64,000 nucleotides of DNA, taken from positions 64,001-128,000 of IMG/VR virus record IMGVR_UViG_3300038856_000064; one strand, given 5' to 3'. The notes beneath the pieces are model-generated. The model worked only from the letters and a program-made list of their open reading frames with translations, had not been told where the DNA came from and did no database searches. A program made the position numbers and the translations under genes. Source of the stretch: a virus. Of this stretch, positions 1-15,519 are shown one piece after another; position 1 is the first letter of the stretch; each line of letters starts with the position of its first letter.

Positions 1-369
1 GTCGTTAGGATTCAAGCCTGCATTTCGTGCTCGTAAGCTAATAAAATCTTCGGTAGGGCGCTCGTAGAAATTACTATAGCGTGGCCAGTATTGTAAGTCA
101 TAATACTTATCATGCCTTTTTACAACATCTAGAATCTTACGATCCATATCATGCTCTGCTTCTTGTCTAGTTGTGTGACCTTCGGGCAATTTCCAATATA
201 CTATTTCATCAATATGAGGGTTGCCAGCAATAACGGGGGCGAATTTATCTCTTATGTGCCACGAAATAAAAGCATCTGGATGAAGCTCGCGGATGTGTTT
301 TATTATTGGTGTAGCATAAAGCACGTCAGCCATTGCCCCCCACGCAATAATACCGATCGACTTAGGCAT
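1..369 (-). CDS. GT9 family (heptosyltransferase-like) glycosyltransferase, 3' end beyond window; not in ORF track
   Basis: Hand translation from ATG at 369 is open to the edge: MPKSIGIIAWGAMADVLYATPIIKHIRELHPDAFISWHIRDKFAPVIAGNPHIDEIV..., matching the GT9 N-terminus (G-D-V-L-x-x-T-P ... P-x-A-x-I ... N-P-x-I-D-E). G-rich RBS upstream. Confidence 0.8.
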   Translation of the reverse strand, partial: MPKSIGIIAWGAMADVLYATPIIKHIRELHPDAFISWHIRDKFAPVIAGNPHIDEIVYWKLPEGHTTRQEAEHDMDRKILDVVKRHDKYYDLQYWPRYSNFYERPTEDFISLRARNAGLNPND

Positions 370-613
370 CCTCCCCACCCCCCTCGTCAATCCCGTCAAT
401 CCCCTCTATAATTGCGCTACGGAGACTATCCTGGCGTCCTCGCACCGCCGTTAGTTCTCTATCTAGACGAGATGTCAACTCGGTTAGTTCGCGATTTTTT
501 GCCTCTAGAATAGAGAGGGTGTGGTGATTCTCTTCTACTTTTTGAACCAATGCATCTAGCCTAGTCTGTAGTTCTTCGACTCGTTTTTCGTTTTGTTTAC
601 TTCGCTTGAACAT
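362..613 (-). CDS. small coiled-coil hypothetical protein
   Basis: 83 aa with heptad pattern; GGAGGT RBS; class I promoter directly upstream. Confidence 0.75.
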   Translation of the reverse strand: MFKRSKQNEKRVEELQTRLDALVQKVEENHHTLSILEAKNRELTELTSRLDRELTAVRGRQDSLRSAIIEGIDGIDEGGGEDA

Positions 614-631
614 GGTGTACCTCCATACCTC

Positions 632-659
632 TATTATGTGGCAAGATGCCTATTCCGTG
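632..659 (-). promoter_or_regulatory. class I phage promoter (YACGR-N12-GMCACAYAATA)
   Basis: CACGGAATAGGCATCTTGCCACATAATA; one of six identically spaced copies. Confidence 0.8.
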
Positions 660-668
660 CGGATTTTC

Positions 669-1388
669 TTATATATGCCTGATGCTACTCGAATCAAGAC
701 GCCATAGGGCACAAAGTTCAGGTAGGCGGTGGAACTTATATCCAGCTAGTATGGCCTTTTTCCAAGTCTCATAATCTGGTGACTTACCGTCTAGCTTGAC
801 ATCAGAGCGCGAGAAGCCACCTAGTTGTTTTAAAATCTCAGGACGATAAATCATAGTGGTATGCCCCAAACAATTCTGCCCCTTAGTTAACAGGCAATGT
901 TTTATCTGTTCATGTGTACAGACATCTAGATTAGGTTCATTGGGCTCCACATAATCTAACTCTAACATTTCTGGTGCAGGGTCTCCATAAAATCCTACCA
1001 TGCGAGTAGAAATAAATGAAATTTCTGGATGGTTTCCTAAGAACTTCATCTGCAACTCTAATCTTTGAGGATGGATAATATCATCAAGATCAAAATGCCC
1101 CATCCATTCTGTATCAACTAGAGATGCGCCATAATCAATTACCGCTCCGATTACTGGTTCGCTCTTAAATGAATAAGAGTCAACCCTATCCCAAAGATCA
1201 TCACTCAGGCAAGATAGGGCATCGTTCCACTCAAGCACCTTCTCGGACGTATCCCAATCCCAATTGTGGGCGATGAAGATGATATTAAAATCTCGAAATG
1301 TCTGTCTCTCTAGTTGTTCTGCCCAATGCTTAATCCAAGGACGGTGAGCTTCATGACAATATGAAAGAATTGTTAAGTTCTTAGTCAT
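669..1388 (-). CDS. GT2 family glycosyltransferase
   Basis: QTFRDF, DLDD (DxD), PQRLELQ, H-T-T-M-I-Y-R and DYETW motifs typical of GT2. Confidence 0.85.
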   Translation of the reverse strand: MTKNLTILSYCHEAHRPWIKHWAEQLERQTFRDFNIIFIAHNWDWDTSEKVLEWNDALSCLSDDLWDRVDSYSFKSEPVIGAVIDYGASLVDTEWMGHFDLDDIIHPQRLELQMKFLGNHPEISFISTRMVGFYGDPAPEMLELDYVEPNEPNLDVCTHEQIKHCLLTKGQNCLGHTTMIYRPEILKQLGGFSRSDVKLDGKSPDYETWKKAILAGYKFHRLPELCALWRLDSSSIRHI

Positions 1389-1598
1389 CTACATCTCCTA
1401 ACTGGTTTATTAATAGCTTCTTCAATACTCCATCCTAATTTACTTATACGATTTAAAATTGTTTTATATGGCAAGTTATGCGTTTCGCAATAAGTTTTGA
1501 GTGATATACTGCCTATCATAAATTTTACCTTAGGAGGGCGACGATTTGACACCTGTTCCTTTATCAAACCACGTTCCGTCTGAAATATATCTTGCCAC
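1385..1598 (-). pseudogene. internally deleted HNH-type homing endonuclease relic
   Basis: GGAGG RBS + GTG start gives MARYISDGTWF; the C-terminal part KEQVSNRR...LPYKTILNRISKLGWSIEEAINKPV lies in another frame; nuclease core absent. Confidence 0.6.
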
Positions 1599-1600
1599 GC

Positions 1601-1816
1601 CTAATCCTCCAACCATACAAAAATCTTAGAAGGTTCTGTACAATGTTCTACACCATTCTCGTCATAAAATGGAATAAATGTAGCATCCTCTAAAAGCGCA
1701 TCCTTAACCCATTCTTCGATTTGTTTACGAAATGCCGCATTCTCTTTTTTAGTCCCTAGACTCTCAAATGATGCCTTTACTTCACATCCGATTGTTACCT
1801 TTATAGTCTTAGCCAT
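1601..1816 (-). CDS. hypothetical protein
   Basis: 71-aa ORF packed between neighbours, overlapping the upstream stop. Confidence 0.65.
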   Translation of the reverse strand: MAKTIKVTIGCEVKASFESLGTKKENAAFRKQIEEWVKDALLEDATFIPFYDENGVEHCTEPSKIFVWLED

Positions 1817-2825
1817 TCCATCCCCTTCCCGTTCTCCAGTCCTCTATGAAATTTTTCATCCTAGTTGTCCACAAATTTTTCTCACGTTTATGATATGCCG
1901 CATTAGCAATTTCTTGTCGTTCATGTGGATGATCCAAGTAATACTTGATGCCATCGATCATATCGTGCACAAAGTGATACTCTACAAATTCTTTATTGGG
2001 TGTGTAAATCTTATGAAGATCATCTGTCTCTGTATGTTGGGTAGTAACCATGAAGGCTCCGCATCCCAATAATTCGAAATCTCTTCCCTTGATTTGGCCA
2101 TGGTTAGCGCTCCTAGAACACCAACGTAAGTTAAGGTTGATCATACTATCATTAAAGATGCTAACCATATCTTTACAGCTAGGGCGCCCATGATGATCTG
2201 GATGATCTCCCCAAAAGTGTCCCCACGTATGCACACGAATCCCAGCGCCACGTAATTGAGCAATGATACTCTCACGAATTCCGTGTCTTTGCCCGACAAA
2301 CGATACCTCGAATTGTGGCCCTGTAAATGATAGCTCGCGATGACACCAACTAGGAATTCCGAATGGCATATGATAACACTTTACTCCATCATTGCGAAGT
2401 TGATCCATCATATGAAGCGCTGGACTAATTGTGTGAGTATCATACCCCTCTGTGACTCTAGACTCTACAAAGCGGTCGCCCGAATAATGCTTATAGCGCA
2501 TATGGATATCGGGGTGATAGCTTACTATTGGAGTGCCGCCGTCGATTATTTGACGAGCCTGCGGGAGGTGAATACCCAATGCATGCGTGACTGGAATTTG
2601 GAAAATTAAGTCAACGCCCTTTGCAAGACTTACTAAACGCTCTAGCCCCTTAGGGTCGCTCTGAGTGTCAACCCAATGTGTCTCTAGCTCTACTAAACCC
2701 TCGTCTTCTAGTTGCTTCCATGGTTTATAGATATTTTCGTATTCCCACGAGGCGTTGGAAAAGTCAGGCTTCATCTGTCCGTTCTGCCCAAAGTCAGCAT
2801 ACAAACAGGCTAGTAAAATCTTCAT
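1809..2825 (-). CDS. CgeB-like (GT-B, Glyco_trans_1_2) glycosyltransferase
   Basis: VSFVGQ..GIRE, INLN, KGRDFELLGCGAF, YYLDHPHERQEIA motifs. Confidence 0.85.
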   Translation of the reverse strand: MKILLACLYADFGQNGQMKPDFSNASWEYENIYKPWKQLEDEGLVELETHWVDTQSDPKGLERLVSLAKGVDLIFQIPVTHALGIHLPQARQIIDGGTPIVSYHPDIHMRYKHYSGDRFVESRVTEGYDTHTISPALHMMDQLRNDGVKCYHMPFGIPSWCHRELSFTGPQFEVSFVGQRHGIRESIIAQLRGAGIRVHTWGHFWGDHPDHHGRPSCKDMVSIFNDSMINLNLRWCSRSANHGQIKGRDFELLGCGAFMVTTQHTETDDLHKIYTPNKEFVEYHFVHDMIDGIKYYLDHPHERQEIANAAYHKREKNLWTTRMKNFIEDWRTGRGWNG

Positions 2826-3553
2826 TACTCCTCCACCAAATTTAGATGTATCCGGTAAATCTTACCGTCGATCTCAATCTTACGCCCAGACCAGTCATTA
2901 TCAAATGTCCGAGCCCTAAGTTCATTGATAAGATCATAGCCATCATATAAGCGCATTTCACTCTTCGTTATGGGGGGCAACTCAAAGTCTTTGCTATGGT
3001 GACTAACCGCCTTACTTTCGTCTTGTGGGACCCCATTGGGTATATGATTATTTGCAATTAGAAATAAATTAGTATCTATCAACTCCTTCATCGCTTTGAC
3101 TGCCTTGTCGTAGGCAGACTCTCCCGTATCCAGTGGTGTTAGCTCAACCTTCTTTTGCCATAGAATATTACCCGTATCGACTCCATCATCGACCCTATGA
3201 ATAGTGACCCCAAACGGTGTCCCCTCTACGATGGACCAATAGTATGGATGCTTTCCTCTCCCGTATGGGAGATAAGATGGGTGGGTATTAATTACTGTTA
3301 GTCCTGGAGTTTTATGGATATGCTTAAGAATCTTAGGCCACCAAGCGAGTACAATTAGATCAGGTTTGAATGTATCTACAAGGTGTTGAGTAAGAGACTC
3401 ATCTGTATATTTAAATGAAGGAATATCCTCTAGCACACACCACGCCCCCTCATGTTGAACAAAGGCAACATTTTCTGGACGGTATGAAATTATCCGATCA
3501 CAAAGATATTTGCCAACCTCGTGATTACCAGCAAGTATACCTATCTTAGTCAT
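2825..3553 (-). CDS. sugar N-formyltransferase (formyl-THF dependent, VioF-like)
   Basis: INTHPSYLPYGRGKHP and GVTIHRVDDGVDTG signature; C-terminal LRARTF; located next to DegT. Confidence 0.88.
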   Translation of the reverse strand: MTKIGILAGNHEVGKYLCDRIISYRPENVAFVQHEGAWCVLEDIPSFKYTDESLTQHLVDTFKPDLIVLAWWPKILKHIHKTPGLTVINTHPSYLPYGRGKHPYYWSIVEGTPFGVTIHRVDDGVDTGNILWQKKVELTPLDTGESAYDKAVKAMKELIDTNLFLIANNHIPNGVPQDESKAVSHHSKDFELPPITKSEMRLYDGYDLINELRARTFDNDWSGRKIEIDGKIYRIHLNLVEE

Positions 3554-4232
3554 CGTTCTTACCTATAAACACAACCTCAGGATGCCACTGATCGTAAATG
3601 ATAGCGGAAGATTCACGGTATTCGCAATACCTATAGGTATGTTTGATATGCTTAATTTCCTCGTCCTCCATCACTGGACTTAGTAAACGCCCCGTCTGCT
3701 CGAAGATCTGTAATATATTTCTAGTTGGCGTAATCTTACTTTTATTCCAGGTATTACCATCCATAAATGGTTGTCCAGTGATTAAATCTTCTACTACGTA
3801 GAGACCGCCTTTTCTAACAAACGGAAATAGGGCACCTAGAGAAATCTGTTGGTGTGCCTGATCATGACTTCCGTCGTCCACAATGATGTCGAAAATTCCT
3901 ATTCCGAATTCATCAATCGCGCGCAATAGCTCTTTTCTATTGCCCTGATCGGCTATGGTGGTAAAGATACGATCGTGCTTTAGTAGGTGTGCAATTTCAT
4001 AGCATGTGGTAATATCAATGCCATGCACCTCAGCGTTAGGAAAATACTCAGCCCACGTTCGAAGCGAGCTACCCTTATTTGTCCCAATCTCAAGAATCTT
4101 AAGTGGCGCGTCTCTCTCAATTCCTTGGCGTTTAAAATACTCCAAGTAAAGTGGAAGATAACCCAACTCTAACTTGTCGGTTTGGAATTGTCTGGCGAAT
4201 TCCTTAAGTTCATCTAGATTATGATTGTTCAT
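3546..4232 (-). CDS. class I SAM-dependent sugar O-methyltransferase (MycE/TylE-like)
   Basis: LEIG..GSSL..W.EYFPNA.VHGIDI, DQG, FDIIVDDGSH, GGLYVVED. Confidence 0.8.
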   Translation of the reverse strand: MNNHNLDELKEFARQFQTDKLELGYLPLYLEYFKRQGIERDAPLKILEIGTNKGSSLRTWAEYFPNAEVHGIDITTCYEIAHLLKHDRIFTTIADQGNRKELLRAIDEFGIGIFDIIVDDGSHDQAHQQISLGALFPFVRKGGLYVVEDLITGQPFMDGNTWNKSKITPTRNILQIFEQTGRLLSPVMEDEEIKHIKHTYRYCEYRESSAIIYDQWHPEVVFIGKNDD

Positions 4233-5355
4233 CTAATATTACCTTGAGTGTATCTATAACTCTAACAACATCATCATCTGTTAATTCTAGATGGATAGGA
4301 AGAGTCAATAGCTCGTTAGAAAGTTCATGTGCCACTGGACACGTATTCATACCATGCCTATACATACGATAAAAAGTATTGTCAATATAGTGGACGCCAG
4401 GGTAAATCTTCTCTTTGTTTAATGCCTCAACAACAGCGTCACGATTATAGACTGCCATCTGGAAGAGGTGACATGATGATTTTACGTTAGGATCTTCTAC
4501 AATTCCCCTAGTCTGATATGGAAAGTTATGCTTGTATTGAAGGGCAATATCTATGCGACGTTTATTATCTTCATCTAGATACTTTAGTCCTACTAATCCC
4601 AGGGCTGCCATTATGGCATTGCCATGGTACTTATAACCAACCTCTGGCACATCGTATCTCCACTTATAAGAGCCTCCACGCTCACTTCGCATAAATGTAT
4701 CCTTGTCGATACCTAGCCAGCTTAACTTGCGTGACTTGGCATCAAACTCGGCATCCTGAAAGCATACCATACCTGAGTCCGCCGTGGGGAGATTTTTCAC
4801 AGATTGAAAGCTAAAAACAGCAACATCTGCCTCGTTACCAATATGTCGTCCGTCAACCTCCGCTCCAGCGAGATGAGCAGCATCTAGAATAAATTTAAGT
4901 CCATGCTTCTTACAGATAGCGCGGATCTCGTTTAATGGCCCTGGGTTCCCTCCCATGCCCACATACATAACTGCCCGCGTCCTGGTAGTAATCTTGCTCT
5001 CGACCTCCTTAGGGTCCAGGCAGAGGGTCCTTTCGTCCACGTCAGCGAACACGGGGAATAGTCTCTCATAGAGGATAGCGTGGTTAGTTGACACAAACGT
5101 CAGGGGTGTGGTGATTATCTCGTCACCGTCACTCCACCCATAGGCATCCTTAAAAATTTTGACAGCTAGATGCAGTCCTGCTGTTGCCGAGTTAACAAAA
5201 TGAGCATGTGGTAATCCAGTATACTTTTTCCAGGCTTGCTCAAATTCGACTGTCTTACCACCAAGACCAGTCCAACCAGCGTCAAGACATTCCCGAATAG
5301 ACTTTAGGCACTCTTCTACTCTATAAATCGGTTTTAGGACCTGCAAGCTCTTCAT
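4219..5355 (-). CDS. DegT/DnrJ/EryC1/StrS PLP-dependent sugar aminotransferase
   Basis: NSATAGLHLA, TPLTFVST, DAAH, FSFQSVKNL (PLP lysine), LTLPIH. Confidence 0.95.
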   Translation of the reverse strand: MKSLQVLKPIYRVEECLKSIRECLDAGWTGLGGKTVEFEQAWKKYTGLPHAHFVNSATAGLHLAVKIFKDAYGWSDGDEIITTPLTFVSTNHAILYERLFPVFADVDERTLCLDPKEVESKITTRTRAVMYVGMGGNPGPLNEIRAICKKHGLKFILDAAHLAGAEVDGRHIGNEADVAVFSFQSVKNLPTADSGMVCFQDAEFDAKSRKLSWLGIDKDTFMRSERGGSYKWRYDVPEVGYKYHGNAIMAALGLVGLKYLDEDNKRRIDIALQYKHNFPYQTRGIVEDPNVKSSCHLFQMAVYNRDAVVEALNKEKIYPGVHYIDNTFYRMYRHGMNTCPVAHELSNELLTLPIHLELTDDDVVRVIDTLKVILDEQS

Positions 5356-5609
5356 TAAATAAAATCCCTCATATCATTCATAGTATGCTCGACAACCCTA
5401 GCGCTATCCCACCAATCAAAATGATCTAGATGATTCTTCATCTCTTCTTCTGAATCATCTTTAAAAAGATCTCTTAGCCACGCATGACCATCAGCGTTGT
5501 ATTTATCACAAGCCTCCTGTGCTGCCTCCTCTGTATCAAAGATGCCCAGAAGATTATAACCCTCATCATTTGAGTTAATGACAGTGTATACTGTTCTATG
5601 TGTATCCAT
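5355..5609 (-). CDS. hypothetical protein
   Basis: 84-aa acidic ORF, translationally coupled to both neighbours. Confidence 0.65.
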   Translation of the reverse strand: MDTHRTVYTVINSNDEGYNLLGIFDTEEAAQEACDKYNADGHAWLRDLFKDDSEEEMKNHLDHFDWWDSARVVEHTMNDMRDFI

Positions 5610-6318
5610 ATTTCATCCTCATTGCGCGCTTATCAGATTCTAGTTGTTTTGGGATATCTAGATTTTGTGTTAATTGAGATTCCCACATCCTAACGACAAC
5701 ATCTGGTAGTAAATGAATCGCTGGTGGACCAGCTTGCCTATAAAGCTGAATCCACATATCACAATCCATCGCATATAAAATTTTAGGATCACACTTAAGA
5801 GTTAAGCTACTATCAAACATTATAGCGCTCGGGCATCCTATCTGATTAACACCTTCTACCATAGCCTTCTCCCCAGGCCATCTAGGTTGATGTGGGCGCT
5901 CTCTTTTTACCCCCTCAGAGTCAGTATGGGTGCACATACTTGCGAGCCATTTAGCGTCGCTTTTTTCTAGTGTTGCAACCATGTCTGCAATTGCCGTTCT
6001 GCTATCTAGTAGGTCATCTTGATTCATAATCTTAATATAACGATGTCCGCAATTCACACCCAGTCCTATAGCACTATTGGTATTAGCTGCTGGTCCCCTG
6101 CCACTACATCCAATAACCCTACATTCTTTTGTGCATTTAGATAACTCAGACATCATACGCTTATTTCCCGCAATATCTTCACTAGGCTGAATAGATGCTA
6201 ATACGAGAATACTTGAATAGGTCTGAATATTGATGGAGTGAATCAGCTCACCTAACACTCTAGGTGTCTCTGGTCCTGAATAATAAATAGGAATGCAGAT
6301 TGAGACTAGTGGCTTCAT
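5596..6318 (-). CDS. GT2 family glycosyltransferase
   Basis: LVSICIPIY, AANTNSAI, YIKIMNQDD, IGCPSAIM, DCDMW. Confidence 0.85.
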   Translation of the reverse strand: MKPLVSICIPIYYSGPETPRVLGELIHSINIQTYSSILVLASIQPSEDIAGNKRMMSELSKCTKECRVIGCSGRGPAANTNSAIGLGVNCGHRYIKIMNQDDLLDSRTAIADMVATLEKSDAKWLASMCTHTDSEGVKRERPHQPRWPGEKAMVEGVNQIGCPSAIMFDSSLTLKCDPKILYAMDCDMWIQLYRQAGPPAIHLLPDVVVRMWESQLTQNLDIPKQLESDKRAMRMKYGYT

Positions 6319-7223
6319 AGAATTTCATTATCCTTACACCAAGATATTATAGTTTCTGCGCGATTTTTGTACGAGTGATTCGCGTGCATATACTCCATCA
6401 AGCGCTGACCATTCTCTCGCATTTCCTTAAGCCTATTCGGATGGCAAAACTCGACATCCTTAATCATTCTTTCTAGTTGCTCAAACGAATCAAAACACTG
6501 AACAGAATCATCTAGAAAATCAGGGATAAATTCTTTGAAATCCTCATAGCTAGCGCGATCCATCAAAAGATTAGTGCCACAACCAGCCGTTTCCCAGGGG
6601 CGTCCTGGTACCAGCCCCCTACATGCATCCTGATTGATATGTATCATTGTATATAGCTGATTAGTCTCGTCGATCAGCGCCTCGCCGAAAACGCCATTCA
6701 CGCAACGAACCTTCTCTAGTAGCTTTTCTCTCTCGGCAGTTATACTTCCTACAAACCCTATCGTAAACTGCTTTAGTATTTCTGGCTTACGCCTATGAAT
6801 TTGTGGAGAGCATGCGTATGGTAAATGTAATACTGGACTAGGTGTTCTTTCTTTAAATCGATCAACAAATAATTTGTTAGCAACTAGATAGCCATGATAA
6901 CTATCACCGAATGCCTTTTTGAATGATTGCTCTGGATGATAACTTACGTCAAAATCCCAATATAGTCTTGGAATGTACTTAAGGTTATGGTGGTAGAACA
7001 AGGAACTATAACCGGACATTCCATCGTTCATCTCAGTAACTATAAGAAGGTCAAACTCCTCTTCTCGGGCTTCTTTAGCACCTAGGAATCTATACGGCTC
7101 TTCATAAAAGTTTCCATAAAAAATAGCCTCGTGACCTGCTTGCTTAAATCCCTCAACTAATTGCTGAGCCGTGCAGCGGTCTGGTTGTTGGGGAATACAT
7201 CTCCCGGTTACTAGGACTTTCAT
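6315..7223 (-). CDS. CgeB-like GT-B glycosyltransferase (start revised to MKVLVTG)
   Basis: HLPYAC, IGFVGS, RPWETAGCG, HSYKNRA; ATG at 7223 overlaps the stop of the upstream microprotein (ATGA). Confidence 0.8.
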   Translation of the reverse strand: MKVLVTGRCIPQQPDRCTAQQLVEGFKQAGHEAIFYGNFYEEPYRFLGAKEAREEEFDLLIVTEMNDGMSGYSSLFYHHNLKYIPRLYWDFDVSYHPEQSFKKAFGDSYHGYLVANKLFVDRFKERTPSPVLHLPYACSPQIHRRKPEILKQFTIGFVGSITAEREKLLEKVRCVNGVFGEALIDETNQLYTMIHINQDACRGLVPGRPWETAGCGTNLLMDRASYEDFKEFIPDFLDDSVQCFDSFEQLERMIKDVEFCHPNRLKEMRENGQRLMEYMHANHSYKNRAETIISWCKDNEIL

Positions 7224-7339
7224 ACTATCAACCCAATAATAAGCCATGTGACAAGAAGGACTAAAAATAAAGTAATACTTCTTCTCATATGACGACGTTC
7301 TTCTTTTGAAGAGTAATAATCTTTTGGAGGATATGTCAT
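7220..7339 (-). CDS. 39-aa single-pass membrane microprotein; not in ORF track
   Basis: MTYPPKDYYSSKEERRHMRRSITLFLVLLVTWLIIGLIV*; GGGAG RBS; ATGA overlaps at both ends. Confidence 0.75.
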   Translation of the reverse strand: MTYPPKDYYSSKEERRHMRRSITLFLVLLVTWLIIGLIV

Positions 7340-7863
7340 ACTCCCACCTCATCTATAACCCTACAAAGAATGCTATCCAAGTTCTTTTCGACACTAGGAT
7401 TACCAAGGTTTATGATTGGGATATTGTTTTCTCTAGCGACACGCATAGCTAATGCAGTACCACCTACATATTTGCCCTCATCAGTATAACAAATTACTAA
7501 ATCAGATGGGGTTTTTAAATCTACACCTAGAACCTGAAATATATTACGTTGCTTGATACGCTTTACACCCTGAGATATATCATCGTTAGCATAGGGGTCA
7601 TGACGATAAACAAGGTCGAGTGCATCGTCGCGTAACTCTTCTGTATGAGCACGCCCAAGAATTGGCAGCTCCTTATTGAAGGTGCTCCATGGCATGTATA
7701 TTATACAGTGATCTCTAGCGCCACGCTCGAAAGCATAATCTGCTCCTTCTGCATGTCCTGAGCGAATCCACCATCCACGCTCGCGTGCTTCTGCGCCGAG
7801 TTCTACAAATAGGTCGCAAATTTCAGGTGTAGTGTTACGCGAGCCAATTCCGGTAATTATCAA
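7336..7863 (-). CDS. SLOG/DprA-like nucleotide-binding protein
   Basis: GIGSR.T, RSGHAEGAD.AFE, RN.FQVLG, GGTA motifs of the phage SLOG family. Confidence 0.8.
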   Translation of the reverse strand: MIITGIGSRNTTPEICDLFVELGAEARERGWWIRSGHAEGADYAFERGARDHCIIYMPWSTFNKELPILGRAHTEELRDDALDLVYRHDPYANDDISQGVKRIKQRNIFQVLGVDLKTPSDLVICYTDEGKYVGGTALAMRVARENNIPIINLGNPSVEKNLDSILCRVIDEVGV

Positions 7864-8057
7864 TCCAATAACTCCTGCAATTCTTTAATCCACTGCCGAA
7901 AACCTTCGCGGTCTAAGGTGGCATAAAAATATCCATCACATTCCTCAGTAATGCAAAATTCATTGTCATCGATTTTCTCTACTGATACAACACTTCGAGA
8001 AAGTAAAAAATTACTAACCGATTCTAATCCGCGCCAATTATCTTCATCTTCGTTCAT
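7860..8057 (-). CDS. hypothetical protein
   Basis: 65 aa, ATGA coupling at both ends. Confidence 0.65.
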   Translation of the reverse strand: MNEDEDNWRGLESVSNFLLSRSVVSVEKIDDNEFCITEECDGYFYATLDREGFRQWIKELQELLD

Positions 8058-8584
8058 AGTTTTATGTCACTCCCCTTACGATCCGAAACTTCATTAAACT
8101 TCTGACGAACTAGATCTTCTAATTTAAGACCAAAACGAGTAGCAACTAGATCAGCATATATAACTACATCGGCGATCTCCTTTCCGATTTCTTCTAAAGG
8201 AATATTGCCATCGCGCTTCATCTTCTTGGTGAGATTACATAACTCGCCTACCTCCCCAGCGAGGGCATTGGTCCACTCGCCAGGAGACCAATCTGTTAGT
8301 CCCTCGTCGTGTTTAAAAGCTGTTATGGCACGCTCGTAACCTACGCGACGTAGTTTACTAAAGCAAAGACTACCGATATCTTCTAATACCTGGACATCTC
8401 TTTCCACTACCTCTGACATATTAAACGAAAGTGGACAACTCTTTATGTCCTCATATGGAACTATAGAGTATATGTCATATTCATCTAGAATATCAAATGT
8501 AACTTGCCCAACCTTTAGAACCTTGACAATCTTATTAGTGGGCGTATGTATTACAAAATCTCCTACTTCTATTTTATCGCTCAT
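8054..8584 (-). CDS. MazG-like NTP pyrophosphohydrolase with N-terminal extension
   Basis: GEVGEL...KEIADVVIY all-alpha NTP-PPase motif; likely start MSDKIEVG at 8584. Confidence 0.82.
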   Translation of the reverse strand: MSDKIEVGDFVIHTPTNKIVKVLKVGQVTFDILDEYDIYSIVPYEDIKSCPLSFNMSEVVERDVQVLEDIGSLCFSKLRRVGYERAITAFKHDEGLTDWSPGEWTNALAGEVGELCNLTKKMKRDGNIPLEEIGKEIADVVIYADLVATRFGLKLEDLVRQKFNEVSDRKGSDIKL

Positions 8585-8585
8585 A

Positions 8586-9632
8586 TTATAACCTATATGG
8601 ATGATGTGGATGTGACTCTCGTAAAGTGTTGCCTGTAACAACTACAAACTCGGCACGATTTCTCAACGACTCAATATTGCGAGCGCCGCTATAGCTAAAG
8701 CCACTACGAATACCAGCTTCAAGATTCTGCAAAGTATCAGCAACGGGACCTCGGTAAGGAACTTTTGCGCTGACACCCTCAACTCTAGGAGTTCTCTCAC
8801 CCCTCTTTTCTTTTTGTGCCGCATATGATGCTGAGCCTCTAAAAGTTTTGTATGTTAAGCCATTTTCAACTAGACGATCTCCTGGAGCCTCATCTGTCCC
8901 AGCAAGCAGTGCCCCTAGCATTACTGCATCAGCGCCGGCTGCCAAACCCTTAACAATGTCGCCTGAATACCTGATACCACCATCACCTATGATGGAGACA
9001 CGCCTATCATTATTCCCCCTCAGTCCTTCTAGCCTTAGGGTTATATCGACGTCTTCAATAGCACTAAGTTGAGGAAAACCATGTCCACTCACAACTCTAG
9101 TTGAACAAACGCTGCCAGGTCCAATACCAACCTTAATGATATTAGCTCCAGCTTCAACTAAGCGAAGGGCAGCCATTCCCGTAGCAACATTGCCTGCAAT
9201 GATATCGGTGTCTGGACAAATCCCCCTAACTCTGTGAATAAATTCAGCTACACGCTCATGATCACCATGAGCTACGTCTACACAAATCATATCAAAAGCA
9301 AGCGGATTTATACATAGAGAAAAATCCCCCTCTGAAATGCCACGAGAAACAATACGTGGGGCACCAACCTCTTTGCACATATTTAGCCATCGTTGTTGCC
9401 AATGACTGTCGGCAAATCGATGTAGGACACCGGCGCCACCCGCCTGATGCATTGCAACTGCCATCTCGCCCTCAGTGACCGTATCCATATTAGAAGATAA
9501 GATCGGCAGGGTCAGCTTAATCCTACCTACAGTAGTACTAATATCTACATCATTTCTAGATGCAATATCCGAGTGCTGTGGCACGAGGAGCACGTCATCA
9601 AAACTATAGGCTGGCTTCATTCTAATTTTCAT
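8586..9632 (-). CDS. guaC: IMPDH/GMP reductase family enzyme without CBS domains, probably GMP reductase
   Basis: [38 protein letters not shown]; no Arg-Tyr dyad in the flap; start at 9632 or 9620. Confidence 0.8.
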
Positions 9633-10299
9633 TAAATATCTCGTGGTGTTCAGGGTGTAATCGCTCTCCGTTTGGGCCAATAATTGAACCGACAAAATCA
9701 TCCCCCTGGCGTGGAATAGGAAACGTCATACAGTGACGGTGAATATCGCTAGTTGGATAAATCTTATGTGCAACTAGAGGATAGACATACTCTTTCAAAA
9801 AATCCTGGTCACATTGCCAGGCGTCTTTATATTGTTTTGCGAATTCTTTTATCATGGGCGCCATTTGTAGACAGGCATGCCTTTTCATTCCGAACATGCC
9901 ACCCATCAGTCCCAACCTTGGATTAAAATGATAGGGGTGATCAGCCATTGAGTGGACAAGTTTGGTACTCTGCATCCATTCTTCAACGGCAAGAGCTTCT
10001 CGCTTACTTAATCTTGAGTCGCAGTCTCTAGAAATAAAAATATCCACGTCATCTTCACTAGCGGGAAGAAATCTTGCAAACATACCCTTCCAGCCCTCTA
10101 GCCCCTTGGGTATTTCTACCACGTCTGCGCCTAGCTCAACTAGACGGATTATAATATCTGACGGCACTGAGTCTAAATCAATATAAAACCTACACCCCCA
10201 TCCTGGATAAATCTTGGGTGCAAGCTCGGCATTACGGATCGCACCTACCGTATATTTTTCTTCGCTCCCCCAAAGTGAAAAGGTAATACGTTTCTTCAT
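9622..10299 (-). CDS. putative GT-A-fold glycosyltransferase
   Basis: FSLWG..KY..GA..N, RFLP, SRDCDSR (DxD), DHPYH, GGMFG, DQDFL; inside the glyco island; leaderless. Confidence 0.6.
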   Translation of the reverse strand: MKKRITFSLWGSEEKYTVGAIRNAELAPKIYPGWGCRFYIDLDSVPSDIIIRLVELGADVVEIPKGLEGWKGMFARFLPASEDDVDIFISRDCDSRLSKREALAVEEWMQSTKLVHSMADHPYHFNPRLGLMGGMFGMKRHACLQMAPMIKEFAKQYKDAWQCDQDFLKEYVYPLVAHKIYPTSDIHRHCMTFPIPRQGDDFVGSIIGPNGERLHPEHHEIFNEN

Positions 10300-10304
10300 A
10301 TCTC

Positions 10305-10332
10305 TATTGTGTGTCTATCGGTCAAATTCGTG
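10305..10332 (-). promoter_or_regulatory. class I phage promoter, leaderless
   Basis: CACGAATTTGACCGATAGACACACAATA followed by 5 nt and then ATG. Confidence 0.75.
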
Positions 10333-11133
10333 CAGAAAATCTTTATACCGCTTATAGTAATCCGGTGACGCAAACTTCGTGTCGTTCTCTAACGCTATGA
10401 TAGAAGGGCTACTAGGAAAAAACTCCTCGATGGCGCGCAAAGCCTCAAAATTACTTCTTTCCTTATCTGATTGTTCTAGTGAGTCTGGTCTTTGATTATA
10501 AATACTTAGGCACGAGGGAATAGAAATACCAGAAACACCTAGAGACATAAAGTATAGGACGAGCCAATAGTCAAAAGCCGATCGATATTCCATCCCAGCC
10601 TTAAACATACGCCTCCAGTCCACGAGATCCCGCAACTTATTATCCCAATGCACATGCACGCCGCAACGAAAGAACTGTTGTAGGTCGAGAGACGAATAGG
10701 TAGGCGGAACCCCCTTAGCGATCACCCTATCATTTACTCTTGTCTCATAACCTCCATAGTAAAAGTGACTCTTTTCTTGGCGCAACATTCTATTTCTTCT
10801 AGATGCTTCGTAGGCAGCCTGCAAAATCTGAATCCCTCTCCATGGAAATGATCTATCATCCGTATTTGAATTGGTGACGATCCTTCCTTTGGCGCAATGC
10901 CATCCAACCAACCAACTAAATCCATATGGTGTTCTTTTAGGCTGCTCAATAAGCTTAATGCGCGAATCCTTCTCACGCCACTTCTTGATTATCTCTACAC
11001 TGCCATCCGTTGATGCGCTATCTACAATGATATGCTCGAAGTCTTGAATAGTTTGTTGTAAGGTATTTTCTATCAGTCCATCTAGAAACTGTTCAGAGTT
11101 GTAGCAAGAGGTGATAAAGCTAACTTCGGGCAT
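10315..11133 (-). CDS. GT2 family glycosyltransferase
   Basis: VSFITSCYN, QTIQDFEHIIVDSASTDGS, NTDD, DYWL. Confidence 0.9.
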   Translation of the reverse strand: MPEVSFITSCYNSEQFLDGLIENTLQQTIQDFEHIIVDSASTDGSVEIIKKWREKDSRIKLIEQPKRTPYGFSWLVGWHCAKGRIVTNSNTDDRSFPWRGIQILQAAYEASRRNRMLRQEKSHFYYGGYETRVNDRVIAKGVPPTYSSLDLQQFFRCGVHVHWDNKLRDLVDWRRMFKAGMEYRSAFDYWLVLYFMSLGVSGISIPSCLSIYNQRPDSLEQSDKERSNFEALRAIEEFFPSSPSIIALENDTKFASPDYYKRYKDFLHEFDR

Positions 11134-11134
11134 A

Positions 11135-11374
11135 TCACTCTACTAGATCAAATACATACACTACGCCATGTTCTTCATGATCGTGTCGATTAATGGTAAC
11201 GACTCGTGGATCATTACCGACCTTGGTGATCGTATCTAGAAAGCGTTGTTGCTTTACTTTACTCTTGAAGTCATCCTCGGAAGGCCAAACTGATAATTTG
11301 CTGTCCCCAGCATCCAAAGCCTCGGTTACCCAGCGATGACGCCTTGGTTTATCTGGTAATTTTGCTTCAGTCAT
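11135..11374 (-). CDS. hypothetical protein
   Basis: 79-aa ORF tightly packed in the operon. Confidence 0.6.
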   Translation of the reverse strand: MTEAKLPDKPRRHRWVTEALDAGDSKLSVWPSEDDFKSKVKQQRFLDTITKVGNDPRVVTINRHDHEEHGVVYVFDLVE

Positions 11375-11376
11375 TG

Positions 11377-12426
11377 TTATACCTCTACAGTGTTAAAGAA
11401 CTTATCATACCCCTGCTTCTTTTCTTTTGCGAAGATCCAAATTAATGGAATATCTTTTAGGTTATATGGCTCTACACCATCAGGTCCATCAAAGTAGGCT
11501 AAATCTTTACGAGCTAAAAAAGAATCCCTATGTTTGGTGACTGAATGCCCCTCCATAATTAGAGGATGCTTGTTGTCAAACCTTAATACCGTATCCAAAT
11601 CCTCAGTTTGATTTAAATACTCATCAGTTTGTCCACCACGCGCATATGCGCCAACGTCACCATGTTTATCCTGCCCCAATTCCTTATCATAAAATTCCTT
11701 CTTTGCCCTGATCTCTTCATTATTATCCTTACAATACGAATAATGATATACTACAAAACTAGGTAGGACAAACCTACGACTTAGATAGCGAGGATCAAAG
11801 TAAGTGCAAACTCCATTTGCATCGCGAGCTACAGGATGATTAGCGTAATTTAGCCCCGGCTGAAAGCGAATAAAGCGCTGGTGTTGTTGGCCCCAGTCGC
11901 CACTCGGTTTACGAATATGATAGGCATCGCGCCAGAAGTGATAGAATCCAGCAGGGACAAATTCGGTAGCCCATGGCTCAATAGAGATTGCCTTGCGTAG
12001 CTCATCAACAACCTCTGGATGGATGAACTCGTCAGCATCAGTAATGAGCATCCAATCTCCCTCTTGCATATACTGAAAGAAGGTGTTCTTAAGTTCTTCT
12101 AGATCCTGCCAAGGGCGATCGATCTGCACAAAAACGATCTTACGATCTGGGTCTTTATTGTCCTTGACATCCTTGATGATCTCAACCGTGCGATCTAACG
12201 AATGACCATCTGGCGTCGCCTGCCCTGCGGCGACCTTGCTTTGGACAGCACCCTCAATAACGACAATACGATCTACCTTATCGTAAAGCTGAAGCATACA
12301 AGCTTCAATAAGCTTCTCCTCATTACAGGCTTGGATACATTGCACAATTTTAGGTTGCTTGTCGATGGCATCACAGATAGCACCAACTTGGTTGGGTAAA
12401 TTATTATTAAACGGGTTATCAGACAT
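11377..12426 (-). CDS. GT2-like glycosyltransferase
   Basis: NEE.LI, SLDRTVEI, DWMLITDADE (DxD), YHYSY. Confidence 0.82.
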   Translation of the reverse strand: MSDNPFNNNLPNQVGAICDAIDKQPKIVQCIQACNEEKLIEACMLQLYDKVDRIVVIEGAVQSKVAAGQATPDGHSLDRTVEIIKDVKDNKDPDRKIVFVQIDRPWQDLEELKNTFFQYMQEGDWMLITDADEFIHPEVVDELRKAISIEPWATEFVPAGFYHFWRDAYHIRKPSGDWGQQHQRFIRFQPGLNYANHPVARDANGVCTYFDPRYLSRRFVLPSFVVYHYSYCKDNNEEIRAKKEFYDKELGQDKHGDVGAYARGGQTDEYLNQTEDLDTVLRFDNKHPLIMEGHSVTKHRDSFLARKDLAYFDGPDGVEPYNLKDIPLIWIFAKEKKQGYDKFFNTVEV

Positions 12427-13645
12427 TGCTAGCCTCCTGTTTGTCAGCTACTACGCCCTCGATGACCTCTAGCATCTTTGGCCCAATAACTGAATAATCA
12501 AATTCCTTCATATCCGGTGCAGGCTTTAGTTCCTGACGTGCCTCATAAACACTGCGCATCTGGTTCATCATAGAAGATACTGATGGTTCCGCAATCTTAT
12601 CAAAACTCGTATAGAGTTCTGGATCTGCATGTCCTTGTCCCACTAGAGGCTCCATAGAATACCGTACTGGATAAACATTATTTTTAGGAATTTCTCTAAC
12701 TGGATAGTGACCAGGAATCATGCCGGCCTCCCCCTCTGGAATGTCAACGTATTCGGTATCGAATGCAAATTCGCCCATACCGCCCCAGGAGGTAGTGACT
12801 AGCTTATTGCCGTAAGCTAATGCATCGAACGCTGGCAGGCACCACCCCTCTCCGCGACTACTGCATACATAACAGTCTCCAGTCTTGTGAAGTTTTTTAA
12901 CCTGTTCCTCAGTAAGAGTTTTGGTCACGACCATAACTGGCGGATAACCATCAGCGGGTAGTCTCATGCCTTGTTTTGCGCCGTCAATGTATGCGCGCAA
13001 CCTATCACGCTCGCCATTACGATCGCCCCCCATATTGATGTATGTCTTCAGAATTAAGATCACATCTTTGTGGCCATGAAATTCCGTTAGATAAGACCTT
13101 AGTAAAACATCGATTCCCTTCTTGGCAGAAAACTGACTAATGTTATAAAACACGAACTTATCAGTAAGAAATTCTGGATCGGATGTTGCGGAGATCGATT
13201 CAATCCCATCTAGATTATAAGATGAGATGTCGAAAGTGTGCGGCACCTTAAAGGTTGGCACCGTAACACCGGAATCCCTGAATGCCTCCACGCTAGCCTG
13301 GCAAAAAGTAATTACGCCATCAAACTTATTGAGCTTATCAACCCAATACTGTGGAATTCTAGTAGTCTCCCAGGCGACAACAGCAATATTGATCTTGCCG
13401 TCTACGGGGCGCATTTCATTTGGCGTGCAGTGCTGTATAACAACGTCAACGCCGTTAAGGTCTTTTGTAAGCAACTGGCGCTCTAGATCTGTTGGCTTGT
13501 AAGCCGTGCCAGGATCTGCTTGATCATAACGCACAGGACGTACAACTAGATCAACCCCCGCATCGTGTAATGCCTTAATATAGCCCCGAGCAGCGGTTGA
13601 ATACCCGCTAAAGTCTCTAACTGGTCCAATGTATAAAGCTTTCAT
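12419..13645 (-). CDS. GT4 family glycosyltransferase
   Basis: SGYSTAAR, WETTRIP, KKGIDVLL, SSRGEGWCLPAFDALAYG. Confidence 0.9.
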   Translation of the reverse strand: MKALYIGPVRDFSGYSTAARGYIKALHDAGVDLVVRPVRYDQADPGTAYKPTDLERQLLTKDLNGVDVVIQHCTPNEMRPVDGKINIAVVAWETTRIPQYWVDKLNKFDGVITFCQASVEAFRDSGVTVPTFKVPHTFDISSYNLDGIESISATSDPEFLTDKFVFYNISQFSAKKGIDVLLRSYLTEFHGHKDVILILKTYINMGGDRNGERDRLRAYIDGAKQGMRLPADGYPPVMVVTKTLTEEQVKKLHKTGDCYVCSSRGEGWCLPAFDALAYGNKLVTTSWGGMGEFAFDTEYVDIPEGEAGMIPGHYPVREIPKNNVYPVRYSMEPLVGQGHADPELYTSFDKIAEPSVSSMMNQMRSVYEARQELKPAPDMKEFDYSVIGPKMLEVIEGVVADKQEASNV

Positions 13646-15519
13646 ACTATCATAGCCTCAAAAGAGTCTCCATTGTCTTGTTCATTAGTACTAGGTGCCA
13701 AAGTCTTACTTCCTGCACGCAAACGCTCTACTTGATTCTGCGCCTCAGCCTGTTGACGGAAGTAGTTTGCGACCTCCTCGCGTGTCTTCTGAGCCGGGAC
13801 TCCACGAGAGAGTTCAACAGCTAGTTTTTGCAACCATGTCCTTCGACCATCCTCATCAATATCGTGCTCACCACTATAGCCTAATAGTTTGGTATAACAC
13901 CAGACAACGAACTCTTCATTCGTCATGCCTGGATCTGGCTGCTGCATATCGATATCAATTAGGCTAACGTCCCTATCCCATGTTTCGTCACGATCAAGTG
14001 GAGTGATGTGATCTAGAATAAATTCCCAAGTCTTCCAGGTCTTATCCCAATCATAGTGTTCTTCGGCACATTCACGAGCCTCTGCCTTCATACGAGATAA
14101 GCGCTCATGATCACCTAGTAACTCGCCCATCTTTTTAGCGCAGTCTTCCATTGATGTGTGTGCTCTCCAACAGGTTGTCTCGGGCTCTTCATAAAGATAT
14201 GCCACGTCCATGACCTCTCCACCCTTATGAACACTATAAGTTTTCTTATTGATGTGATCATAATCTGGAACCCTACCCTTTTCAGAAATGGCGGCATAGT
14301 CTGTCACTAATACAGGAACACCACAGGCTTTGGCTTCTTGTACGGGCATTCCGCAGCCTTCGGCGATACTCATCTGCACCATTAGATCAGCCATACCATA
14401 TACCTCTGCTAGTTGCTCTCTGGTGTATCCCGCTCCAGTGGTCGGAGTGCGGGCGCTTTGCTGTCCACACTTGGGACATCTAATTACGGGATGCTGTCGC
14501 AGATTAATAGACGGTGCGATAAACACATCCCCACACTCTGGATTGTGACACATAAAGGTCGAATTGACCTCACGAATAAATCCCTTTCGTGTAATTGGCA
14601 CACCATGATATCCCGTCTGGATGCGAGCTACGGCTCGCGGAAAATCAATCGACATAGCGTTATCTGGCCATGCCGTATGCATTACCAAAATTGACTTTTG
14701 TACGGTCTCATTATCAGGGAACGCACTCTTCATTAAGGCAAATGAACGTAATACTTCGGAGATACGCTTACGTGCTTGATTACGTTGGACTAATAGAATA
14801 ATAGGAATGTCTGGTCTAAGGCCCCACTTCTTTTTAAGTGCTGCCTTTTCTTCGTCAGAACGCGGACGGAAGGTCTTAAGGTCGACACCTGGACGAAGTG
14901 GAACAGGATGTAGCTTGCCTGGCGCCTTGTCAATTCCAATAAAGCCTGGCTTATCTGGCGGGCTTGTGCGTAGCTCTAGTCGTGGCGAAGATTTTCGTAA
15001 TGAATCAATACCAAAGTCTGAGTATGCCATCACATATGTAGCACTATTGAACGTAGAAATCCACTCCTCTTTTTGAGGAATAGAGTCTACGGTCGGCATG
15101 ATAAGCCAACTAAAGTATTTACGAAATGGGCTACGCTCTTGAAAGGCAAGCATCCACCAGTCACGAATATCGATTACAATATCTGGTCTAAAATCGCTAA
15201 GAACTTTCTCAAACTTCCAGCGACCAAACTGATTAGTATTCTGTCCTGGCTGCGCTGGGTCAGCCTGATTAAAAATCTGCTCCTCTTCCGGAGTCATGGG
15301 TTGATTACCATAAAACTTCCAGCGGCCAGCAACGAAATCTCTTGCGCGAGGATCATCATCCCTAACATACGAACCAAGCTCTGCGATCTCATACTTGCCC
15401 GTTGCGGCTAATCGCGGCAATAACTCTCTATAAATATTGGAGAATCCCGTATTTAGGGACGACGCCTCGCCTACAAACAAGATACGCTTTTTATAATTTT
15501 CCTGATTCTCAATTCCCAT
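13642..15519 (-). CDS. GT4 glycosyltransferase with Zn-ribbon insertion and C-terminal DUF4214-like domain
   Basis: TGFS, RNQARK, AEGCGMPVQEAKACGVP; CHNPEC...CPKC insert; NEEFVVWCYTKLLG...DEDGRRTWLQKL tail. Confidence 0.85.
   Translation of the reverse strand: MGIENQENYKKRILFVGEASSLNTGFSNIYRELLPRLAATGKYEIAELGSYVRDDDPRARDFVAGRWKFYGNQPMTPEEEQIFNQADPAQPGQNTNQFGRWKFEKVLSDFRPDIVIDIRDWWMLAFQERSPFRKYFSWLIMPTVDSIPQKEEWISTFNSATYVMAYSDFGIDSLRKSSPRLELRTSPPDKPGFIGIDKAPGKLHPVPLRPGVDLKTFRPRSDEEKAALKKKWGLRPDIPIILLVQRNQARKRISEVLRSFALMKSAFPDNETVQKSILVMHTAWPDNAMSIDFPRAVARIQTGYHGVPITRKGFIREVNSTFMCHNPECGDVFIAPSINLRQHPVIRCPKCGQQSARTPTTGAGYTREQLAEVYGMADLMVQMSIAEGCGMPVQEAKACGVPVLVTDYAAISEKGRVPDYDHINKKTYSVHKGGEVMDVAYLYEEPETTCWRAHTSMEDCAKKMGELLGDHERLSRMKAEARECAEEHYDWDKTWKTWEFILDHITPLDRDETWDRDVSLIDIDMQQPDPGMTNEEFVVWCYTKLLGYSGEHDIDEDGRRTWLQKLAVELSRGVPAQKTREEVANYFRQQAEAQNQVERLRAGSKTLAPSTNEQDNGDSFEAMIV

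Follow-up and report, generated by a model that had tools for sequence, protein, structure and literature searches.

What does a phage build with ten glycosyltransferases (GTs) encoded next to its replication genes, and on which acceptor? The purpose of large GT clusters in large aquatic phages has been a standing question since P-SSM2 in 2005, and the question returns with the IMG/VR virus record IMGVR_UViG_3300038856_000064 (175,148 bases), where such a cluster is the conserved core of a large uncultured clade and where there is a concrete candidate target, the Ser-Gly sites of putative tail proteins. We analysed a 64-kb window of this record (bases 64001–128000; window positions are counted from its first base), whose positions 1–15519 had been marked as a glycan-biosynthesis island in a preliminary description, together with flanking DNA and related contigs. 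The island is inherited vertically and defines the clade, combining a backbone that stays fixed with tailoring cassettes that can be exchanged, and the reading we favour, at a probability of roughly 0.45, is that its enzymes form a soluble assembly line glycosylating the phage's own putative tail, baseplate and fibre proteins. Among public runs, the stretch was found in two sediment-metagenome DNA runs, both from one study, and no RNA run carries it.

Assignments were taken from Pfam and NCBIfam, open reading frames (ORFs) without a Pfam match were placed by ESM Atlas, and PDB and profile comparisons were added. Pfam, NCBIfam and ESM Atlas bore out the enzyme list given earlier (ten GTs, an aminotransferase, a formyltransferase and a methyltransferase), whereas the earlier boundaries had to be moved: the island reaches 5.8 kb to the left of the window, as far as genome position 58169, covers about 21 kb (genome 58169–79519) and includes three genes without an evident role in glycan synthesis (7336–7863, 8054–8641 and 8586–9701). 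Locus L002, the 6 kb to the left, holds the rest of a GT9 gene and several small ORFs, together with genes for a DUF4254 protein, for a second DegT-family enzyme, for an Fcl-like epimerase/reductase and for GDP-mannose 4,6-dehydratase (GMD). Within 21 kb the phage encodes ten GTs, GMD, the Fcl-like enzyme, two DegT-family enzymes, a formyltransferase and a methyltransferase. Every gene in the examined part of the window lies on the minus strand, G+C content is even there (0.41–0.46), and neighbouring island genes overlap by 1–17 bases almost throughout, in keeping with the co-orientation and tight coupling described before for the mostly overlapping genes at 1–15519. Upstream in the direction of transcription follow a DnaB-like helicase, primase, RecA, a deoxynucleoside monophosphate (dNMP) kinase, a DnaE-type polymerase, SSB and a sigma-70-like factor; the island is flanked by replication genes (DnaE, SSB, sigma) on one side and nucleotide-metabolism genes (ribonucleotide reductase, dUTPase) on the other, and its GT genes lie neither inside nor beside a virion structural module.

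The arrangement is shared across a clade. The lead GT comes after DnaE in every one of 73 IMG/VR loci, mostly together with SSB and sigma, and the conserved order reads DnaE-(SSB)-sigma-GT4_625-GT4_408-GT2_349-GT2_272-[variable]-GT8-like-GMPR-like-(MazG)-CgeB_345-GT2_239-CgeB_338-[variable]-Fcl-GMD, with protein lengths in amino acids (aa) as suffixes. This backbone, eight transferases plus GMD/Fcl, retains its order down to 45% identity in the lead GT and 40% in DnaE, and it is present in the complete relatives with direct terminal repeats G006 (176,061 bases, 69% identity) and G007 (183,100 bases, 45%). The backbone shows no patchy, accessory distribution; only the tailoring cassettes vary, and the DegT1–formyltransferase cassette, the ColD-type gene and the DUF4254–GT9 pair are confined to the closest lineage (G001, G006). 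The most distant relatives (28–35% identity) have the lead GT, sometimes with the second GT4, adjoining DnaE and SSB, and the ten genes downstream of the lead GT in one of them (L079) gave zero Pfam matches. Because gene order is conserved across relatives, in more than 70 related contigs, and G+C is uniform, the island is a vertically inherited clade module and not captured host DNA, as the preliminary description had held. GMD is itself ancient within the clade, for which reason single genes are not used here to infer the host. Nucleotide and tblastn searches of phage records brought up no cultured relative: the island gave no megablast match to GenBank phages, the CgeB-like and GT9 proteins gave no tblastn match to 50,697 GenBank (INPHARED) phage records, and tblastn with a 584-aa candidate packaging protein against phages was likewise negative.

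All island proteins look soluble, which makes assembly in the cytoplasm, as proposed earlier, the natural reading. In the 175-kb record no ORF has at least four hydrophobic segments, the complete relative G006 has none with more than three, and a search for the priming phosphoglycosyltransferase PF02397 gave no match. The island therefore has neither the polytopic membrane proteins nor the priming enzyme of Wzx/Wzy, ABC-transporter or GtrABC-type loci, and the earlier observation that flippase, polymerase, ligase and priming enzyme are missing from the window extends to the record.

What points to a target among the phage's own proteins, next to clade-wide conservation, is an excess of Ser-Gly (SG) in the proteins of the structural region. 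Over 18 of these proteins SG is the top outlier of the 400 dipeptides (139 against 73.9 expected, z 7.8; the next dipeptide reaches 4.3), with a preference for Leu and Ile in the following position and for Pro and Val in the preceding one. Measured against composition-preserving shuffles, SG followed by a hydrophobic residue occurs 95 times in the structural region where 31.7 are expected and 82 times in the rest of the genome where 64.8 are expected; T4 structural proteins are without such an excess (25 against 21 expected). The labels tail, baseplate and fibre are putative, since a PHROGs search with ten structural-region proteins returned a single match, to a homing endonuclease.

The SG excess is retained in the orthologous proteins of G006 and G007, both of which have the backbone. 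G007 lacks the GT9 gene and the DegT cassette and still shows the excess, so that a sequon, should the motif be one, must be served by a backbone enzyme rather than by the GT9 gene product. The complete, distant genome G013 has only the lead GT near DnaE, with a GT4_408-like gene far away, and shows no SG excess (91 against 81); its orthologues of the 495-aa (window 42658–44145), 459-aa and 352-aa proteins likewise have none. Within the clade, the SG sites of a 1498-aa protein (window 36184–40680) can be followed from genome to genome: 28 of 33 are shared with G006, compared with 78 of 158 serines, and eight are shared with G007, which has 27 of its own. Close relatives thus keep the SG sites, and more distant ones have replaced them at a maintained density, a pattern that fits selection on the motif itself. 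Residues 1162–1232 of the same protein form a short repeat run, x-S-G-L-V-G-x-Y-M-x-G, and its other SG sites are non-repetitive. Three proteins encoded on the plus strand to the left of the window and outside the main structural block (304, 241 and 461 aa; genome 38744–43008) also have an SG-hydrophobic excess (z 4–5.6) and could be further virion or fibre proteins.

Clade-wide conservation and the SG excess in putative tail proteins are the reasons for which we favour a phage-owned acceptor. We propose a phage-owned, membrane-independent glycan assembly line in which the ten soluble transferases would add phage-made and host-supplied sugars stepwise, and in which a group of tail, baseplate and fibre proteins of the phage itself would be the acceptor, attachment taking place at serines in a [P/V/T]-S-G-[L/I/V] context. 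Acceptor, sugars and order of steps are what we infer from the observed enzyme inventory, operon structure, synteny, absences and SG statistics. Taken further, the proposal would be that a clade of uncultured phages of about 155–183 kb O-glycosylates its putative tail, baseplate and fibre proteins at this sequon with an eight-GT, replication-linked line headed by a zinc-ribbon/DUF4214 GT4, and that the glycan coat is varied by an exchange of outer-sugar cassettes (colitose-type, N-formyl amino sugar, GT9 sugar) between lineages. In this complete form the proposal is tentative and rather doubtful; if true, it would to our knowledge have no precedent among tailed phages as a virion glycosylation system directed by a sequon.

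Several observations weigh against a virion acceptor. The island sits with replication and nucleotide genes under a shared promoter type, whereas mycobacteriophage glycosylation genes sit with virion genes, and its set of GT9, GT4, GT8-like and GT2 enzymes also resembles a pathway for the core of lipopolysaccharide (LPS). The putative major capsid protein has no SG-hydrophobic site in any genome. The SG pattern could be a structural feature of putative tail folds, and the genomes with the excess (the record itself, G006 and G007) are one lineage, so that the co-variation with the backbone amounts to about one evolutionary event. Finally, G012 is intermediate: it has scattered transferases only, yet shows an SG excess in two proteins.

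LPS core assembly is the model for the reading that the preliminary description had kept as an alternative, remodelling of the host envelope. The phage enzymes would extend a host lipid-linked acceptor, of the lipid A-core lipooligosaccharide (LOS) type or an undecaprenyl-linked intermediate, at the inner membrane face, the product would be exported by host MsbA or Wzx, and the altered surface of the infected cell might, for example, block superinfection or stop progeny from sticking to debris. In the assembly of LPS cores, soluble enzymes of the families GT9, GT4, GT8 and GT2 add sugars straight to lipid A, and host MsbA flips the product. An LOS-type core extension by the phage would need no phage flippase, polymerase, ligase or priming enzyme, and the absences reported above therefore do not count against it; the preliminary description had taken export and ligation genes as the test between the two, and that test turns out to be one-sided. 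Besides the shared enzyme families, the nearest named families of the GT9 gene are LPS heptosyltransferases, colitose-type and N-formyl amino sugars belong to the classic repertoire of O-antigens, expression from the promoter type of the replication genes would suit early action on the host, and envelope remodelling is the published reading of cyanomyovirus clusters (PMC1079782, PMC12801897). Phage host-surface genes are, however, typically accessory (24 in P-SSM2 and none in P-SSM4; PMC1079782), whereas here eight transferases are clade-core and syntenic to 40% DnaE identity; the lead GT family is found, among the matches listed, on phage-size contigs only, save one record labelled as an archaeal metagenome-assembled genome, and the SG excess in putative tail proteins would be left unexplained. 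We regard envelope remodelling as a serious minority possibility, on the unlikely side.

The preliminary description had named virion proteins or DNA as the phage substrate, and of these the virion part is the one we favour. In DNA hypermodification, the transferases would glycosylate a modified base after replication and so shield the DNA from host nucleases. This could account for the physical and transcriptional joining of the island to DnaE, SSB, primase, helicase and RecA, for a lead GT with a zinc ribbon and inteins, as often seen in DNA-metabolism genes, and for MazG, SLOG-like and GMPR-like genes within the island and a dNMP kinase nearby; phage GTs related to LPS enzymes, heptose included, are known to act on 5-hydroxymethylcytosine (5hmC; bioRxiv 10.1101/2023.12.21.572611). 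Known routes need a hydroxylated base, however, and the base-hydroxymethylating enzymes which the preliminary description had suggested might lie in the adjacent DNA did not turn up. ThyA homologues (PF00303) are absent from the record and from nine of ten relatives tested, among them G006 to G010 and the complete genomes G012 and G013 (the one match, in G011, is an ordinary ThyA a long way from the GT locus there); C5 methylase (PF00145, with a matching control) and TGT/DpdA were not found in the record, and a search for Tet/JBP (PF12851) gave no match and is uninformative because its control matched nowhere. Known DNA glycans are mono- to trisaccharides (PMC13326640; 10.1101/2023.12.21.572611), which eight to ten GTs and three sugar pathways would far exceed. 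With the hydroxylated-base enzymes missing and known DNA glycans of one to three sugars, DNA is a very improbable acceptor. An acceptor of another kind (a protein of the host or of the phage outside the virion, a small molecule or a glycan dissolved in the cytoplasm) is improbable to a lesser degree: the closest solved folds of the lead GT include the small-acceptor enzymes MshA, BshA, GlgM and PimB', whereas ten transferases with exchangeable outer-sugar cassettes suggest a surface-exposed, selected glycan and not a metabolite, and no precedent for such a system is known to us.

If the putative tail, baseplate and fibre proteins are the acceptor, as we favour, which sugars would they receive? 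The nucleoside diphosphate (NDP)-sugar dehydratases that the preliminary description had suggested might be found in adjacent DNA are indeed there, as GMD (5e-111) and a ColD-type dehydratase, together with the Fcl-like reductase (2e-85), all left of the window. No sugar-1-phosphate nucleotidyltransferase is encoded, and GDP-mannose and the other donors must therefore come from the host. Phage GMD would convert host GDP-mannose, and the Fcl-like reductase would then yield GDP-fucose. The second DegT-family enzyme, DegT2, reads SFFSNHLISGGGGG where perosamine synthase reads SFFGNKIITTGEGG, with His in place of the lysine that binds pyridoxal phosphate; its SFFSNH aligns with SFFGNK of perosamine synthase 3BN1, although over the whole protein the similarity to perosamine synthase (2e-30) exceeds that to ColD (5e-21). 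Because this His is the signature of ColD/E1 3-dehydratases, a colitose-type 3,6-dideoxyhexose made by the Fcl-like reductase together with the ColD-type enzyme is plausible. The other DegT enzyme, DegT1, is nearest to ArnB in the PDB (1e-52), followed by several 4-aminotransferases (perosamine synthase, 4e-37), and the best PDB matches of the formyltransferase are VioF and other sugar N-formyltransferases (4e-16; GDP-perosamine formyltransferase, 8e-10). Since the nearest relatives of the two enzymes are 4-aminotransferases and sugar N-formyltransferases, an N-formylated 4-amino-deoxy sugar is the likely product, possibly methylated by the neighbouring methyltransferase. Compared with the pathway to GDP-N-formylperosamine, which uses GMD, perosamine synthase and a WbkC-type formyltransferase, GMD is present, and DegT1 and the formyltransferase are nearer to ArnB and VioF than to the GDP-perosamine enzymes.

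How the island would be expressed can be read from a promoter-like motif, an A-rich tract followed by cACGaAt-N12/13-GACACATAATAr, which the few intergenic spacers have in common and of which the genome holds eight copies. Minus-strand copies at window 18274, 10312 and 639 split the island into three transcription units, and the DnaE operon and the gene that follows GMD have copies in front of them as well; glycan genes and replication genes share the motif. Direct reading of the spacers shows it in matching positions in G001 and, diverged but still recognisable, in G006. The preliminary description had spoken of the phage's own promoters: a repeated and positionally conserved motif is there, and its activity as a promoter is a prediction.

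The unit from window 18274 runs g168-SSB-sigma-(HNH)-GT4-GT4-GT2-g79-GT2 and contains the first four GTs. Like the features of the other two units, its genes are on the minus strand. The motif itself (18262–18306) is conserved in G001 and heads a segment (16709–18306) with the 168-aa protein, SSB (PF00436) and the sigma-70-like factor (PF04542). Between sigma and the lead GT lies a 396-aa HNH_repeat homing endonuclease (15509–16699; PF18780, 1e-32), which is a recent mobile insertion, since it is absent at that place from all relatives examined. The hallmark of the clade follows, the 625-aa lead GT4 with a zinc-ribbon insert (four Cys) and a DUF4214-type helical tail (13642–15519; PF00534, 3e-13), and behind it the remaining backbone enzymes of the unit: a 408-aa GT4 found in most related loci (12419–13645; PF00534, 1.5e-6), a 349-aa GT2-like enzyme kept in about 48 loci (11377–12426; PF00535/PF13704, weak) with invariant DPD and DAD, and a 272-aa GT2 kept in about 40 (10315–11133; PF00535, 8e-18). 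A 79-aa protein (11135–11374; 52–65% identity in G001, G002 and G006) lies between the two GT2 genes.

For the lead GT4, the search returned 984 homologues on contigs up to 183 kb, and no close cellular homologues surfaced in it; the matches listed comprise full-length forms (about 590–640 aa), a few truncated copies and forms of about 1010 aa that carry inteins. Distant homologues match Pfam DUF4214 (PF13946) at the C-terminus, which confirms the earlier guess of a DUF4214-type tail. The zinc-ribbon cysteines C324/C329/C348/C351 are invariant, as is the GT4 Glu pair E387/E395 in 51 homologues. The AlphaFold model (pLDDT 89) has the chlorovirus NY2A GT 3OY2 as its top Foldseek match (E 7.5e-17), only barely ahead of MshA, GlgM, BshA, PglA and WaaG, so that the match does not discriminate between acceptors. 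Inteins are found in the lead GT of several relatives, among them G002 (1015-aa open frame, L014:700–3900), and three database homologues (P0021, P0023, P0038) have LAGLIDADG/Hint domains; an intein is unusual for a glycosyltransferase and is a sign of a conserved core gene.

The downstream end (ACACACAATAGAGAT) of the second motif copy occupies 10300–10314, its upstream half lying inside the 3' end of the preceding gene, and the unit that it opens extends from the GT8-like gene to GT2_239. The first gene encodes a 225-aa GT8-like GT-A enzyme of a viral 'hexosyltransferase' family (9622–10299; ESM Atlas scores 0.99, TM 0.91) with an invariant DCD at residue 92. Among the backbone transferases further downstream are two CgeB-like GT-B enzymes, of 345 aa (6315–7352; PF13524, 1.3e-8; in G001, G002 and G006 to G010) and 338 aa (1809–2825; PF13524, 8e-26; 27–60% identity in relatives), and the 239-aa GT2-like enzyme (669–1388; PF13641/PF00535, weak; in G001 and G006 to G010), whose DLD at residue 100 is invariant in four genomes. 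Acidic DxD or DD motifs are found in the GT-A enzymes and are invariant across relatives in three. A further 240-aa GT2-like GT-A enzyme (5596–6318) has no Pfam match and falls into viral GT2 clusters of ESM Atlas (feature score 0.98, structural TM 0.88); beside it lies a small 84-aa DUF7336 protein (5355–5609; PF24024, 8e-6). The variable cassette consists of DegT1, a 378-aa DegT-family sugar 4-aminotransferase (4219–5355; PF01041, 5e-86), and the 242-aa sugar N-formyltransferase (2825–3553; PF00551, 1e-21). Between them is encoded a 228-aa class I S-adenosylmethionine-dependent methyltransferase (3546–4232; PF13578, 1.6e-5, weak and under the cut-off), with orthologues in G001 and G006 and a partial match in G007.

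The same unit holds the three genes without an evident role in glycan synthesis, which form a small nucleotide-metabolism group inside the island: a 175-aa SLOG/DprA-like Rossmann protein (7336–7863; PF02481, 0.0027, weak; orthologues in G001 and G006), a 195-aa MazG-like protein (8054–8641; PF12643, 0.0022, weak; orthologues in G002, G006, G008 and G009) and an enzyme of the IMPDH/GMP-reductase family without a CBS domain (8586–9701; PF00478, 8e-99). Relatives retain the SLOG-like gene, the MazG-like gene or both, and the GMPR-like gene is co-conserved with the transferases across the clade. In the PDB the GMPR-like enzyme matches IMPDH (1e-79) and GMPR (1e-53) without reaching the NCBIfam cut-offs; the Cys loop GIGPGSVC is present, the flap is short, of GMPR type and without the Arg-Tyr dyad, and in a flap alignment across the clade the copy of the distant relative G012 has the canonical GMPR motif. 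A role as an IMPDH-like feeder of GTP for GDP-sugars was considered and rejected on account of this GMP-reductase-like flap.

The third unit, from window 639, reaches from a coiled-coil ORF through GT9 to GMD. Its spacer (614–668) carries the motif as CACGGAAT-N13-CCACATAATAGA, and the matching place in G001 has the same motif. The coiled-coil protein (83 aa; 362–613) has weak coiled-coil-type matches only and was not detected in relatives. The GT9-like GT (305 aa) has its N-terminal 133 codons in the window (1–399) and continues to the left (genome 63482–64399; L002:13482–14399; PF01075, 7.7e-5); its Pfam match reaches 22.6 bits against a cut-off of 22 and covers residues 170–265 only, and its match to NCBIfam heptosyltransferase I (2.5e-11) is far under the family cut-off. 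A profile of three orthologues matched the GT9 structure 3TOV in the PDB (2.5e-6, over 60 residues), with E-values of 0.34 for WaaC and 1.4 (over 49 residues) for TibC 4RAP. Neither a likeness to TibC nor the Cys-bound iron site of TibC/AAH-type enzymes was found in the protein, which has four scattered Cys only. The DUF4254 protein (L002:12872–13228) is paired with the GT9 gene in the record, G001 and G006, and may be a partner subunit.

Several genes around the island are of separate interest. Just outside it, a class II-type ribonucleotide reductase with a LAGLIDADG interruption (PF14528; L002:229–3342) has a dUTPase and a DAO-family oxidoreductase as neighbours, and the replication block holds a T4 gp1-like dNMP kinase (PF21448) and a HAD hydrolase (window 23637–24987); such kinases often go with unusual nucleotide metabolism, of which no sign was found here. 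In G006, a GIY-YIG-like endonuclease gene, recognised from a reading of DNA motifs only, lies between GT2_239 and GT9 (L085:14905–15505; G006 genome 114905–115505). A 'Mom' match (2e-18) in a 509-aa protein among the structural genes (window 59425–60954) was rejected as a sign of DNA modification, since the protein has three HNH_repeat units; Mom shares the HNH fold, and the protein is presumably, as the simplest explanation, a homing endonuclease of the HNH/Mom fold.

Among the closest known systems are the clusters of large T4-like cyanomyoviruses. P-SSM2 has 24 genes for 'LPS / cell-wall synthesis and modification' and P-SSM4 none (PMC1079782), and S-SCSM1 and S-SCSM2R have clusters as well, with 13 GTs among 22 such genes in S-SCSM2R (PMC12801897). 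Both those clusters and the island belong to large lytic aquatic phages and combine many soluble GTs with NDP-sugar dehydratase/epimerase genes, with export genes not described; in this sense, large GT clusters without an assigned target are already known and the island is a variant of them. No sequence relation was detected by tblastn, for which the CgeB-like and GT9 proteins were used, and the cyanophage clusters are accessory, whereas here the backbone is clade-core and fixed behind DnaE-SSB-sigma, with a lead gene that carries inteins. Four core GT orthogroups occur in another lineage of large aquatic phages (PMC12619734).

Virion glycosylation is known from the mycobacteriophages Che8, Corndog and Myrna (Freeman et al, 2023, as cited in PMC12619734 and PMC12801897), and in the favoured reading the likeness is that phage GTs would modify the phage's own structural proteins in the cytoplasm. 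The Cheoctovirus Maravista has two glycosyltransferases (PMC11256854), and mycobacteriophage glycans are located, according to the summary in PMC12619734, at the C-termini of capsid and tail-tube subunits. Compared with these few GTs, the island has ten and three sugar pathways beside replication genes, and in contrast to C-terminal sites its candidate sites are internal S-G-hydrophobic motifs in putative tail and baseplate proteins, with none in the putative capsid protein. Viral glycan synthesis independent of host endoplasmic reticulum or membrane machinery also exists in giant viruses, where soluble viral GTs make the capsid glycans of chlorovirus PBCV-1, with viral GMD/GMER, and the fibril glycans of Mimivirus. 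Virus-encoded GMD, a fucose-type pathway and a set of soluble GTs are common to these viruses and to the phage, and the best fold match of the lead GT is chloroviral; those viruses infect eukaryotes, however, and the 3OY2 match is only marginally above bacterial GT4s, so that neither kinship nor a common acceptor follows from it.

Known phage DNA glycosylation starts in every case from 5hmC, 5-hydroxymethyluracil (5hmU) or 5-hydroxycytosine (5hoC), bases whose synthesis takes a ThyA homologue or else a methylase paired with a dioxygenase (10.1101/2023.12.21.572611; PMC13326640). Its clusters (T4 alpha/beta-GT, the methyltransferase (MT)-TET-GT systems of 5hmC, and the arabinosyl-5hoC of RB69/DLP3) resemble the island in that LPS-type GTs are expressed with replication genes, and differ from it in that no base-hydroxylating enzyme was found in the record or its complete relatives and in that the island has far more GTs and sugar pathways. 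With the bacterial LPS core (Waa) pathway the island shares a soluble GT9, GT4, GT8-like and GT2 set without a flippase, polymerase or priming transferase of its own, and unlike that pathway it consists of phage genes of vertical descent, with no gene for a Kdo transferase or for heptose synthesis seen in the annotated parts of the genome. New in comparison with all of these are the clade-core status, the fixed place behind replication genes, the backbone-plus-cassette architecture, the lead-GT inteins and the link between backbone and SG excess. A glycan coat on the virion, if confirmed, would have consequences for how abundant sediment phages adsorb, decay and are recognised, and the enzymes would offer a source of transferases for rare sugars.

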